Below, piece by piece: positions 11,545-48,808 of a stretch of 64,000 nucleotides of DNA. How positions within the stretch are numbered: position 1 is the first letter of the stretch; each line of letters starts with the position of its first letter. Source of the stretch: Candidatus Roizmanbacteria bacterium. Lineage in GTDB: Bacteria; Patescibacteriota; Microgenomatia; UBA1406; GWC2-37-13. The notes beneath the pieces are model-generated. The model saw only the letters and a program-made list of their open reading frames with translations, was not told the origin of the DNA and did not search any database. The translations under genes and the position numbers were made by a program. Location of the stretch: the NCBI GenBank assembly GCA_013335175.1, contig JAAXWC010000004.1, positions 40,999 through 104,998 on the forward strand, read 5' to 3'.

Positions 11545-11610
11545 AGAGACAATGATACAATCAAATCACTAACATTGCTGAATCGAATCATTAGAAAAAG
11601 GAGAAGCATC

Positions 11611-11647
11611 GTCATCCCCGCGAACGCGGGGATCCAGAGGATCGATT
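11611..11647. repeat. single palindromic hairpin unit in a divergent promoter region
   Basis: GTCATCCCCGCgaacGCGGGGATCCAGAGGATCGATT. The same unit plus tail occurs at 44866..44905. Confidence 0.85.
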
Positions 11648-11666: not shown

Positions 11667-13286
11667 ATGAAAAACTACAAAAAATTTCTCCCTTCCATTT
11701 TATTGATAGTTACTGTGCTTCTCGGCTACCTGCTTCGTACGCTGGGGATAAACTGGGATCAGGGGCAGCACCTTCATCCAGATGAACGAATGCTTATTAT
11801 GGTTGCCGACAGAATTCAATTTTTTTCCCAGCTCAATCCGCATTTTTTTAACTACGGTTCATTACCAATTTATTTGTTAAAAGGTATCTCTCAGTTTTTG
11901 GATACAACGTTCTCTACCCACCTTGCCAATTATGATGGGATGCTCTACGTGGGGAGAGTTCTATCAGCACTTGCAGACAGTCTCACGATTAGTGTAATTT
12001 TTGGCATTGCAGTACAGCTTACACGCAATAAACGAATGGGGATATTGGCTGCGTTTACCTATGCAGTTGCATTCTTCCCTATTCAAAATAGTCATTTTTT
12101 TATTGTAGATACGTTTCTTACCTTATGGACTTCTCTATTACTCTATTTCACAATACGATTTGTAAAAAATCATTCTTTTCAGTGGATTGTGTTGATGAGT
12201 TTTTGTTTTGCAGCAGCACTCGCCACAAAAGTAACTGCTAGTATATTCCTTCCCGTTATTCTCTGCGTTTTATGTATAATGCAAAAACCTTTTTTTCCTT
12301 TCAACAAAAACGGTATTCTCCTGTGGATCTACACAACCGCTTTATTTATCTCCACAACACTCCTTTTTCATCTCTTCTTTATGCCCTACGCATATATTGA
12401 AACACAAACCTTTTTGAAAGATATATCAGAACAATTAAAAATGAATAGTGATCCCTATATCTTTCCCTATACTCGTCAGTACGTGGGGACACTCCCCTAT
12501 TGGTATTATGTAAAAAATATTGCACTTTGGGGTTGGGGGCCGTTTTTATTTTTGCTCAGTAGTATCGGATTATTCCTCGCCGTTCGTATTTTCCGCTCGA
12601 AACGAAACAATGTATCGCTCTTTTGTATTGCCAGTATTTTTTATCTGCTCTACTTTTTGGTCATTGGTAGGTCTGCGGTAAAATTTATGCGATATATGCT
12701 CATCTTGTACCCTGCAATGGCACTATTGGCTGGCTATGCACTTGTACATATAAACAAAAAAATAGCGTCTCTTGTGCTCCTGGGCGCGTGTATTTGGACG
12801 GTTTCTTTTATGGCTATTTACTCAAAACCAAACACCAGGGTAGAAGCAACTAACTGGATCCTTGAACATATTCCGGCAGGTTCTCACCTCGCGGTTGAAC
12901 ATTGGGATGATCGACTTCCTATACGAAATGGAGAGCACTATACTACGACCGATCTTCCGTTGTACGATCTTCCTGACGATGAACGAAAGTTTGAAAATAT
13001 TAACCGTATTTTGAATAATTCAGATTACATTATTATCGCTTCAAACCGGCTTATTACTCCCCTCCCGAAACTGAAAGATTGCTCTCTCTATACCTATTGT
13101 TATCCAAGAACAGCCCGCTATTATGAAGATCTCATTTCCGGAAAACTCGGATTTCACCTGGTTGCCGAATTTCACCAAACTCCTCGAATTCCTATACTGA
13201 ATATCGCGATTGACGATCAAAGCGCAGATGAATCATTTACCGTATATGATCATCCGAAGGTGATGATCTTTCAGAAGACAAAATAA
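11667..13286 (+). CDS. GT-C fold membrane glycosyltransferase (GT39/ArnT/PMT-like)
   Basis: 539 aa, multi-TM. First extracytoplasmic loop carries HLHPDERM (acidic DE motif typical of GT-C enzymes). Confidence 0.55.
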   Translation: MKNYKKFLPSILLIVTVLLGYLLRTLGINWDQGQHLHPDERMLIMVADRIQFFSQLNPHFFNYGSLPIYLLKGISQFLDTTFSTHLANYDGMLYVGRVLSALADSLTISVIFGIAVQLTRNKRMGILAAFTYAVAFFPIQNSHFFIVDTFLTLWTSLLLYFTIRFVKNHSFQWIVLMSFCFAAALATKVTASIFLPVILCVLCIMQKPFFPFNKNGILLWIYTTALFISTTLLFHLFFMPYAYIETQTFLKDISEQLKMNSDPYIFPYTRQYVGTLPYWYYVKNIALWGWGPFLFLLSSIGLFLAVRIFRSKRNNVSLFCIASIFYLLYFLVIGRSAVKFMRYMLILYPAMALLAGYALVHINKKIASLVLLGACIWTVSFMAIYSKPNTRVEATNWILEHIPAGSHLAVEHWDDRLPIRNGEHYTTTDLPLYDLPDDERKFENINRILNNSDYIIIASNRLITPLPKLKDCSLYTYCYPRTARYYEDLISGKLGFHLVAEFHQTPRIPILNIAIDDQSADESFTVYDHPKVMIFQKTK

Positions 13287-23814: not shown

Positions 23815-23890
23815 CGTCATCACGCTCATTGCATTCGCTGTCCGGAATGACAGTGAGGATAACAACGACTACCGGCGAGCGGGAGTGACG
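23815..23890. repeat. hairpin-repeat units inside the pyr operon (between carB and pyrC)
   Basis: GTCATCACGCTCATTGCATTCGCTGTCCGGAATGAC (compare 35946..35988) and AACAACGACTACCGGCGAGCGGGAGTGAC. Confidence 0.8.
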
Positions 23891-44723: not shown

Positions 44724-45033
44724 CGTCATCCCCGACCTGCCTGCCCATCGAAGCCCTGGCGAAGTTGGGATCGGGGATCTATGTATTGTTTTATTGAATA
44801 GATTCCGGCATGTACGCCATGGTGGCGACAGCCATGCGGCATCGCAGGGTATGCCAGGGACCCGGACGTCACCCCTGCGAACGCAGGGGTCCAGAGGATC
44901 GATTACTACTGGAGTGATCGGTAATGCTGAAAAAGCAAGATACGATGTAATTAGTCCACTGGATTCCCCTGTTCAGGGGAATGACGAACATTGGTCATTC
45001 CGGCTTGCCCGGAATCGTTGTTAATGGAATTTG
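44724..45033. repeat. mosaic palindromic-repeat cluster
   Basis: Units GTCACCCCTGCgaacGCAGGGGTCCAG, GGATTCCCCTGttCAGGGGAATGAC and GTCATTCCGGcttgCCCGGAATCGTTGTT, plus a longer unit shared in inverted form with 45950..46050. Confidence 0.9.
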
Positions 45034-45089
45034 TTGGTTCAGTGACTTCGGCCCTAATTTGCAATGATAAAAATATATTTTCGTTCACA

Positions 45090-45416
45090 TTATTTATACA
45101 CCTTCTTTTTTTTATTATAGGAAGTTTTCTTTGTACCATATGCACTCTTTTTCTGTTCATCTTTCACTCTGTCGGCAATATATATTTTCATGAGTGATTG
45201 GTACGGAACATTCATCTTCCGCGCTTCAGATTTTATATCTTCCAATAAAGAAACGGGTAATCGAATACTAATTGTCTCCGTACTGAGTTTAAGGTTGGGA
45301 AATTCCATATGTACTGGCTTCCGTACATCGAAATACTCTGTAGTATTATGAGTTGCCCAAAACTCCCGTTCCTCACCTTCATTTTTGAACTTTGGTATTA
45401 CGTTTTTATTTTTCAT
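45090..45416 (-). CDS. CopG/RHH-type antitoxin (BrnA-like), no adjacent toxin gene
   Basis: EEREFWATHNTTEYFD...ISIRLPVSLLEDIKSEARKMNVPYQSLMKIYIADRV is typical of this antitoxin family. Start set at MKNKNV (45416). Confidence 0.65.
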   Translation of the reverse strand: MKNKNVIPKFKNEGEEREFWATHNTTEYFDVRKPVHMEFPNLKLSTETISIRLPVSLLEDIKSEARKMNVPYQSLMKIYIADRVKDEQKKSAYGTKKTSYNKKKKVYK

Positions 45417-45422
45417 TTGTAT

Positions 45423-45431
45423 ATTATGGCA
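45423..45431 (-). promoter_or_regulatory. extended -10 element (TGCCATAAT) 6 nt upstream of the antitoxin ATG
   Basis: The minus strand reads TTGACA-20 nt-CATAAT-atacaa-ATG with no Shine-Dalgarno, a leaderless-type arrangement. Confidence 0.4.
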
Positions 45432-45465
45432 ATATACAAAGTTACGATTGTCAAGAGCCACGTAA

Positions 45466-46070
45466 GTAATTATTCAGAAGTTTCCAAAGGCAGGCCATAG
45501 TTGTATTTTCTGTCATCCCCGACCTCTCTCCCGTCATCCCCGACCTCTCTCCCGTCATCCCCGCGAAGGCGGGGATCCAGTGGATCAATACTCTCTCCTT
45601 CAAAAAGAATGGCGGCCTGTCGCTCGTCTTTCCCACGCACTTGACTTCGAGCATCACACCATCGTCAAAAGTGCGTGAGACCCCTGACTCGTGCCACCCA
45701 TTCTTTTTTTTGGTTTGTTTGTCACTCCCGCTTGCCGGGAGTCGTTGTTACAGGTTAACATTGTCATTCTGGACTGAGGAGCCTGCCCCGAATTACGGGG
45801 CTCAAGGTTGTTATTCCGGCTCTCTCGTCATTCCCTCGAAGGAGGGAATCCATGGGAGGAGTCTGATGCAAGGGTCGGGATGGATCCCCGCCTACGCGAG
45901 GATGACGATGCAACGTCATTCCGGACAGCGAATGGAGTGAGCGTGATCCGGAATCTATACAATTCAACAATACATGGATCCCGGGTCCCTGGCATGCCCT
46001 GCGATGCCGCATGGCTGTCGCCGCCATGGCGTGCAAGCCCGGGATGACGTACATTAGTGAGGGATGACGG
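45466..46070. repeat. densest mosaic repeat cluster: 45-bp IR arm, 21-nt tandem half-units, inverted composite element, many hairpin units
   Basis: 45466..45510 is the exact reverse complement of 47777..47821. GTCATCCCCGACCTCTCTCCC occurs twice in tandem (45512..45553). The composite element lies inverted at 45597..45708. Units GTCACTCCCGcttgCCGGGAGTCGTTGTT and GTCATTCCCTCgaagGAGGGAATCC are also present. Confidence 0.9.
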
Positions 46071-47621: not shown

Positions 47622-47821
47622 CCGTCATTCTCGAGCAAACGAACCCGGGCAAAGAGAAAACGCAACGTCAATCCTCCCCCACGATACAATACAAACCTAC
47701 GTCATCCTCCTGGACAGGAGGATCCAAGGGGTAATAAACATCCACACCATGGATCCCCGCCTTCGCGGGGATGACGGAAAATACAACTATGGCCTGCCTT
47801 TGGAAACTTCTGAATAATTAC
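47622..47821. repeat. 156-bp direct-repeat copy 1 (47622..47777) plus 45-bp IR arm (47777..47821)
   Basis: CCGTCATTCTCGAGCAAACGAACCCGGGCAAAGAGAAAACGCAACGTC ... GTCATCCTCCTGgaCAGGAGGATCCAAGGGGTAATAAACATCCACACCATGGATCCCCGCCTTCGCGGGGATGACGG. The same sequence occurs at 48376..48528. Confidence 0.95.
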
Positions 47822-48375: not shown

Positions 48376-48808
48376 CCGTCATTCTCGAGCAAACGAACCC
48401 GGGCAAAGAGAAAACGCAACGTCGTCTCGCGGAACTCCAATACAAGCCAACGTCATCCTCCTGTCCAGGAGGATCCAAGGGGTAATAAACATCCACACCA
48501 TGGATCCCCGCCTTCGCGGGGATGACGGGAGAGGTCGTGGCGATGACGGGAGAGGTCGGGGATGACGGGAGAGAGGTCGGGGATGACGAGCACGAACGTC
48601 ATTCCCGCGCACGCGGGAATCCAGCGGATCAATTACCTCTGAAGAAATCAGTAAAGCTGAAGAAAACATTCTTTTTATCTCGCTGTACTCCATAATCACA
48701 AAGTTGTCGATACTCTGGACCCCTGCGTTCGCAGGGGTGACGTTGCATTGTCATTCCGGCTTGCCCGGAATCTGCATTTCCCGGGCGGACGCGCATGTCC
48801 GCCCCTAC
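48376..48808. repeat. direct-repeat copy 2 (48376..48528), tandem half-units (about 48527..48587), further hairpin units
   Basis: Same ends as 47622..47777 but with the hairpin loop inverted (CTGtcCAG versus CTGgaCAG). GGGAGAGGTCGGGGATGAC-type units occur three times. GTCATTCCCGCgcacGCGGGAATCCAG, ACCCCTGCgttcGCAGGGGT, GTCATTCCGGcttgCCCGGAAT and GGCGGACgcgcatGTCCGCCCCTAC are also present. Confidence 0.9.

Follow-up and report, generated by a model that had tools for sequence, protein, structure and literature searches.

CGTC-tagged REPs, described in 2013 as the families CGTC-1 and CGTC-2, include dRS3 of Neisseria and RPE-6/RPE-4 of Rickettsia (Di Nocera et al., BMC Genomics, PMC3733652); CGTC-1, with dRS3 and RPE-6 among its members, was reported without a dedicated transposase (PMC3733652). 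In Neisseria, the 28-nt NTS repeat, CGTCATTCCCGCGMAVGCGGGAATCYRG (Chenal et al., Nat Commun 2025, PMC11893778), is recognised by SsnA, a 94-aa GIY-YIG protein that binds NTS only as single-stranded DNA (ssDNA) and makes its cut 3 nt 5′ of the repeat. Binding depends most on the C that follows the palindrome, and cleavage on the three bases that precede it (PMC11893778). The ssnA genes are typically flanked by repeats, and restriction of NTS-bearing transforming ssDNA is the sole demonstrated function of Ssn (PMC11893778). Here we analysed a family of GTCA-headed hairpin repeats that forms a cluster at positions 44724–46070 of a 64,000-nt stretch of Candidatus Roizmanbacteria DNA (hereafter the window; contig JAAXWC010000004.1) and recurs throughout the 1.45-Mb genome of 46 contigs. 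We consider it probable, at about 80%, that these units are hairpin repeats of the NTS/SRM type (SRM, Ssn-related motif), the same as CGTC-tagged REPs, and are recognised by Ssn-family nucleases.

Four copies in the genome match the 28-nt NTS exactly, and the published SRM pattern finds 59 matches, against a mean of 3.1 in 10 dinucleotide shuffles. Among three unit classes, delimited by their 3′ tails, class A agrees feature by feature with the definition of CGTC-1 (tag CGTC/TGTC, 8-bp stem opening with AT, 4-nt loop, tail CCA): 97 of its 124 CCA-tailed units combine an 8-bp stem with a 4-nt loop, position 1 is always A, and T follows it in 33 of the 35 distinct sequences; units of class A/C with an 8-bp stem, a 4-nt loop and the tail CCA or CTA fit the family as well. 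The constant GTC and the C following the palindrome are the bases most critical for cleavage and binding by SsnA. GTC is itself the search anchor of the 281-unit set described below, but two traits lay outside the selection criteria: a C immediately 3′ of the palindrome, found in 272 of the 281 units, and a C or T directly 5′ of GTC, found in 268 of them (C in 187, T in 81).

A scan for GTCA whose A opens a perfect stem of 7 bp or more gave 360 matches genome-wide, compared with 56–68 in shuffled genomes and 42–154 for ten other 4-mer anchors. Filtering to family stems and removal of nested matches left 281 non-nested perfect units on 32 of the 46 contigs, 36 of them within the window and nine full units in 44724–46070, with half-units and decayed copies additional to these. 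A preliminary description of the window, made from the letters alone, had reported such a scattered GTCA hairpin family; it is present where described, and far from being confined to one contig it extends over most of the assembly. The whole genome has 356 GC-rich perfect short hairpins, and about 216 of these bear the GTCA head. Pairing was assessed in a non-circular way, by using only the head motif GTCAYYB as start and taking the best short hairpin per site, which yielded 224 sites with no mismatch and 37 with one, as opposed to 0–4 and 15–45 for five control anchors. The 100% pairing in the alignment of units (A1) was not used as evidence, since A1 was assembled from perfect-stem units only and the pairing holds by construction. 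Pairing is maintained across the 39 stem variants counted, with 224 perfect units to about 20 carrying one mismatch, all seven stem pairs listed in the preliminary description occur, and its statement that stems vary yet remain complementary was borne out. Folded as ssDNA, representative units reach z-scores between −3 and −3.75.

The unit plan consists of a constant single-stranded head, (C/T)GTC, a GC-rich palindrome opening A-T/C-T/C-C with variable inner bases, and a constant C after it, so that GTC, the outer stem (A-Y-Y-C) and the C next to the 3′ end of the palindrome make up the constant positions. Two models score the units in bits, R1 for class A and R2 for class B. The three classes are as follows.

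Class A, 124 units: tail CCA; stem 8 bp; loop 4 nt (GAAG, GAAC, GGAC, GTAG); 25 stem variants.
Class B, 90 units: tail CGTTGTT; stem 7 bp; loop CTTGY or a long insert; stems ATTCCGG, ACTCCCG, ATTCCCG, ATTCTGG and ATTGCCG.
Class C, 34 units: tail CTAT; stem 7–8 bp; loop 4–8 nt or a long insert; 12 stem variants.

Two class A units of the window, at 47700–47726 and 48451–48477, are identical save for a reverse-complemented 4-nt loop (GGAC versus GTCC); loops are otherwise strongly polar, about 97% beginning with G.

Units form mosaics, and neighbours no more than 150 bp apart are arranged tail-to-tail in 55 cases, head-to-tail in 53 and head-to-head in 29. Tail-to-tail composites recur with fixed spacers, of 34 nt at least 10 times and of 55 nt at least five times, and in every recurring composite the left stem differs from the right one while both are the same in each copy. 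Because the composites keep fixed left and right stems, part of the stem diversity is subfamily structure instead of independent compensatory change. The earlier proposal that selection acts on the hairpin and not on its sequence thus holds in that there is one family whose hairpin is selected, while much of the variation reflects subfamilies and fixed composite ends, so that not all of it can be counted as independent compensatory events. About 12 of about 21 single-mismatch family units carry T:G or G:T, and the variant ATCCTCGC/GCGGGGAT was seen five times; these mismatches are consistent with stepwise change from C:G via T:G to T:A, the excess over A:C being weak and some copies being identical by descent. 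Twelve head-to-head pairs have exactly 8 nt, often GWTGCAWY, between their GTC heads.

The genome contains ten small GIY-YIG genes, four of which form a distinct group encoding 96–97-aa proteins (PF01541, 52–56 bits) and are named ssn here. All four lie outside the window and are flanked tail-inward by units at 6–26 bp.

C33:6066-6359: type-1 ssn; flanked by class A units, 26 bp and 13 bp away.
C32:66827-67117: type-2 ssn; flanked by class B units, 26 bp and 6 bp away.
C45:24135-24425: type-2 ssn; intact class B unit 6 bp downstream, decayed long-loop unit upstream.
C45:34339-34629: type-2 ssn; intact class B unit downstream and decayed long-loop unit upstream, as at C45:24135-24425.

The other six GIY-YIG genes are UPF0213-like and have no inverted flanking units; two adjacent ones on C31 have units 115–188 bp upstream only. 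The conserved Ssn residues Y8, Y19 and E66 align with Y6, Y17 and E64, which were mutated in SsnA; there is no solved structure of a relative. The preliminary description had found no transposase in the window, which is correct, with Y1 genes and ssn genes lying elsewhere in the genome, and the search for a mobilising enzyme that it proposed turned up the GIY-YIG nuclease Ssn as candidate, in place of a REP-associated tyrosine transposase (RAYT).

Homologues in relatives show the same unit-flanked gene layout. A collection scan with a 5-sequence Ssn query found more than 587 relatives at 52–63% protein identity in many phyla, including other groups of the Candidate Phyla Radiation (CPR), and among its best 80 loci GTCAT...ATCCA hairpins stand on both sides of the gene in 43 and on one side in 16. 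Across 41 genomes of the order, ssn and units are both present in 15 and both absent in 20, with units alone in two and ssn alone in four (odds ratio 37.5, p=6e-6); unit counts in the relative genomes are lower bounds.

Type-1 Ssn (NGTLYIGVT) accompanies units with an 8-bp stem and a CCA tail, here class A/C. The type-2 subclade is marked by the motif YIMAN.RPTLY, lacks the Trp of K.W.R.WK, and always stands beside units with the 7-bp stem ATTCYGG and the 5-nt loop CTTGN, in at least eight genera of the phylum. By these sequence features, the genome would hold two enzyme/site pairs, namely one type-1 ssn with class A/C and three type-2 ssn with class B. What is new, modestly, is the pairing of class B, for which none of the 90 units is matched by the SRM pattern, with a distinct Ssn subclade. 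The class B/type-2 pair is therefore a candidate second, orthogonal ssDNA-nuclease specificity, and such enzymes were flagged as useful tools by the Ssn authors.

A mechanism can be proposed by analogy with Neisseria, from which the ssDNA-only binding and the cut position of these Ssn proteins are carried over. When the DNA is single-stranded, the palindrome would fold, the 96–97-aa single-domain nuclease would bind the hairpin, and a nick would be set a few bases 5′ of the head; this would account for stems that covary between a constant head and tail. This bears on the earlier suggestion that selection acts at the DNA or RNA level, which can be narrowed towards ssDNA, since the characterised partner enzyme binds neither RNA nor double-stranded DNA (PMC11893778).

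Whether Ssn also spreads the repeats is a separate question. We put the chances at about even that the repeats multiply as selfish SRM-ssn-SRM cassettes, together with gene-less singlets and tail-to-tail miniatures, with Ssn nicks setting the ends of the elements. Between their outer heads, a stretch of 412 bp, the two ssn cassettes on C45 share 97% identity, with unrelated sequence beyond, and the C32 cassette is 74% identical to them overall and 82% in the core; the duplicated 412-bp cassette and the miniature tail-to-tail derivatives suggest that Ssn spreads the repeats. Orthologues in a related genome, G011 (L056:1316-3259 and L051:2151-3716), are lengthened in frame by insertions of units that add 14, 25 and 32 aa, which are lacking in the orthologues here (window 11667-13286 and C15:8200-9687). 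Orthologous spacers compared between the two genomes include one with units in both and others with units in one only, and the dominant subfamilies differ genus by genus. These differences in insertions and subfamilies reflect turnover after the genera diverged; they do not demonstrate Ssn as its agent. Shortly before the start of the window gene at 11667–13286 lies a class A unit (11610–11636).

A more far-reaching proposal, to which we would give somewhat less than even odds, is that SRM-ssn-SRM constitutes an autonomous mobile element in which Ssn is the mobiliser of CGTC-type REPs, with ends at the nick 3 nt 5′ of CGTC, and that the two orthogonal nuclease/site pairs include, in type-2/class B, an undescribed specificity outside the SRM pattern. 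Mobilisation by Ssn would explain why cassette similarity ends at the heads, why gene-less miniatures exist and why the 12 head-to-head pairs abut at predicted nicks. If the Neisseria cut offset applies, the 8-nt head-to-head spacer would place the nicks of both strands at its centre. The cassette duplicate and the geometry of the head-to-head junction thus provide a concrete model of repeat movement.

Several points weigh against assigning recognition and spread to Ssn. In two genomes units occur without a detected ssn gene, and in four an ssn gene occurs without units recognised by the two models. SsnA activity is lost when the palindrome sequence is changed with its structure kept (PMC11893778), so that it is hard to see how one type-1 enzyme could serve about 25 stems. 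Because the flanking units are inverted, each strand offers only one cleavable site. There is no strand bias relative to GC skew, and DNA ligation or transposition by Ssn has no support in the findings.

The most serious rival accepts that Ssn recognises the repeats but attributes their multiplication to recombination, gene conversion, template switching at hairpins or another transposase, with Ssn as a domesticated host enzyme that trims ssDNA, imported or exposed, at these marks, a role put forward for transformation in Neisseria. We regard it as rather doubtful, with weight on both sides. The restriction of NTS-bearing transforming ssDNA, the only activity demonstrated for Ssn, fits this account, and ComEC and DprA are encoded in the genome, so that imported ssDNA is a possible Ssn substrate, as in Neisseria, though both genes are common. 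The repeats also cluster round an accessory toxin-antitoxin island and glycosyltransferase genes, and one related genome (G014) has 15 units without detectable ssn. Nevertheless, the ssn cassette is itself duplicated with boundaries at unit heads, gene-less tail-to-tail miniatures recur, dominant subfamilies are genus-specific, and protein identity of 52–63% across phyla, combined with a shared DNA motif, suggests horizontal movement of the unit. Selfish spread by Ssn may go together with an effect on incoming ssDNA at the level of the host, of the kind known in Neisseria.

Far less credible is a reading of the units as classical REPs or REPINs that owe their mobility to a RAYT-type Y1 (HUH) transposase or a resident IS200/IS605 TnpA, as the REP/RAYT expectation of the preliminary description would have it. 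HUH enzymes do act on ssDNA hairpins, and the genome has two RAYT-like genes (NF047646, E 1e-16 and 5e-15) besides IS200 TnpA copies. Yet Y1 genes and units are not associated across genomes (p=0.71), a related genome with 67 units (G015) has no Y1 gene, and a bias towards the lagging strand is absent. The RAYT-like genes of this genome, and among 20 loci of relatives those with detected perfect flanking hairpins, have their own hairpins, of CAACC..GGTTG or CACCTTTAAGGTG type, and never GTCA units.

The two RAYT-like Y1 genes, encoding 220–224 aa (C45:75109-75935 and C12:1918-2743), each lie between inverted copies of their own low-copy hairpin; genome-wide, ATCAACCTCGGGGGTTGAT has 12 copies and CACCTTTAAGGTG seven. 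Together with the gene-specific hairpins of the relatives, they resemble a REPtron-like system of its own within this CPR order. The IS200/IS605 TnpA copies (C35:34332-34694, C8:19412-end and C28:49466-49621) lie at contig ends, one of them a pseudogene with a TAA stop, and a UPF0213-like GIY-YIG gene adjoins the C35 copy.

That the hairpins work in RNA and are maintained for it, whether as terminators, as mRNA stabilisers or as processed small RNAs, is equally improbable. The GC-rich, stable stems, the mild depletion of units in divergent spacers and the T:G mismatches, which would be wobble pairs in RNA, speak in its favour. Against it, T-runs occur on the tail side of only 14 of the 281 units and on the other strand of 10, the orientation relative to co-directional flanking genes is 53:46, and copies are translated inside genes, so that the terminator reading was rejected, in keeping with the earlier view that the units are not simple terminators; orientation shows no bias with respect to replication strand or gene strand either (p=0.28 and 0.46). 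Moreover, the conserved head and tail are asymmetric and correspond to the determinants of a nuclease that binds ssDNA but not RNA. IS200/IS605-derived (PATE-like) miniatures were rejected, as the end hairpins of the IS200 copy, GAAAACCATAGGTTTTC and CCCTGTGG..CCACAGGG, differ from the units, and so was an IS110/phage integration target, the role of dRS3 in Neisseria, as the genome has no PF01548 match.

The cluster at 44724–46070 belongs to a toxin-antitoxin island (PIN, HEPN/MNT, CopG) flanked by glycosyltransferase genes, and is made up as follows.

44725..44782, + strand: long-loop unit, GTC + ATCCCCGA ... TCGGGGAT + tail CTAT, with a 35-nt loop; its outer 8-bp stem folds as ssDNA.
44803..44866, + strand: decayed long-loop unit without GTC head, whose interior is homologous to the 52-nt loop insert of unit 45975–46051 by sequence comparison.
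44867..44893, + strand: class A (NTS-type) unit CGTCACCCCTGCGAACGCAGGGGTCCA (R1 42.2 bits).
44960..44986, − strand: class A unit CGTCATTCCCCTGAACAGGGGAATCCA, head-to-head with unit 44993..45022 via the 8-nt spacer GAACATTG (R1 45.7 bits).
44993..45022, + strand: class B unit GGTCATTCCGGCTTGCCCGGAATCGTTGTT (R2 50.9 bits; ssDNA fold −6.3 kcal/mol, z −3.0).
45090..45461, − strand: CopG-type antitoxin gene enclosed by the cluster, context outside the repeat family (PF12441, E 2.3e-27).
45512..45553, + strand: two tandem 21-nt half-units GTCATCCCCGACCTCTCTCCC (head and 5′ arm only), seen in the sequence directly 5′ of a full unit.
45553..45579, + strand: class A unit CGTCATCCCCGCGAAGGCGGGGATCCA (R1 46.2 bits; ssDNA fold −9.7 kcal/mol, z −3.75).
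45720..45749, + strand: class B unit TGTCACTCCCGCTTGCCGGGAGTCGTTGTT (R2 49.7 bits).
45763..45826, + strand: degenerate long unit (GTCATTCTGGAC...), seen in the sequence directly 5′ of the full unit at 45826.
45826..45907, no strand assigned: tail-to-tail composite of class A (+) 45826–45852, a 34-nt spacer and class A (−) 45881–45907 with one T:G mismatch (43.9 and 37.4 bits).
45915..45958, + strand: long-loop unit GTCATTCCGGA...TCCGGAAT, tail CTAT, head-to-head with 45881–45907 via the spacer GATGCAAC.
45975..46051, − strand: long-loop class A unit GTCATCCCGGG ... CCCGGGATCCA, whose loop holds a structured insert of 52 nt (ssDNA fold −21.8 kcal/mol, z −2.7).
46049..46068, − strand: 20-nt half-unit GTCATCCCTCACTAATGTAC, on the minus strand 5′ of unit 45975..46051 (GTCATCCCGGG...).

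The composite type of 45826..45907 is found at least 10 times in the genome. The degenerate long unit at 45763..45826 ends in the remnant ATTCCGGCTCTCTC, which matches the 17-nt half-units except for TT replacing the GTC head. Half-units, consisting of a head, a 5′ arm and a pyrimidine-rich stretch, precede full units by 17, 20 or 21 nt at 59 places genome-wide, and similar arrays flank ssn genes in four other genera. The half-unit minisatellites noted previously at 45512–45553 and about 48527–48587 are indeed present, as are the copies within coding sequences. The copies placed in the pyr operon at 23815–23890 also exist but are imperfect, one being a single-mismatch class B unit (37.6 bits) and the other a decayed long unit. 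An element of about 110 nt at 45597–45708 is composite and lies inside the cluster, and is not a GTCA-headed unit. In a strain comparison, the sole database match was an identical 2.2-kb Logan contig, which ends inside the repeats.

Compared with known systems, the repeats share with REP/REPIN-RAYT (Nunvar 2010; Bertels and Rainey 2011; Ton-Hoang 2012) short hairpins with a conserved unpaired tetranucleotide, mosaic clusters, a single-copy gene between inverted repeats and recognition at the ssDNA level, but differ in the enzyme (GIY-YIG versus HUH Y1), in the tag (CGTC versus GTAG) and in that the RAYT-like genes of this genome have separate hairpin families. The resemblance to CGTC-tagged REPs extends over the CGTC/TGTC tag, the 8-bp AT-initial stem, the 4- or 5-nt loop, the CCA tail, the heterogeneity of stems, loops and tails, copies inside genes and the lack of a RAYT gene flanked by units. 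As an organisational trait that is no part of the sequence definition, tail-to-tail pairs outnumber head-to-head pairs here (55 to 29), whereas head-to-head predominates and tail-to-tail is rare in PMC3733652; the host phylum is outside the five listed there, and the flanked gene, ssn, has no counterpart found in that work.

With the NTS/SRM-Ssn system, the genome shares verbatim NTS copies, the GTC head and post-palindrome C, a single-domain GIY-YIG gene of about 94–97 aa with inverted flanking repeats, the clustering of repeats near particular genes and the co-occurrence of gene and repeat across genomes. It differs in its ultra-small CPR host, a group not discussed in PMC11893778, in having two Ssn subclades in one genome, in the class B units (0/90) that escape the SRM pattern, and in an abundance of half-unit arrays, of long-loop variants and of in-frame insertions within coding sequences. 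Read jointly, the 2013 CGTC-REP and 2025 Ssn/NTS papers describe one repeat class, of which the present genome is a further example, extending the Ssn/NTS system to ultra-small CPR bacteria in which about 280 perfect copies occupy 1.45 Mb, invade coding sequences and surround a toxin-antitoxin island.

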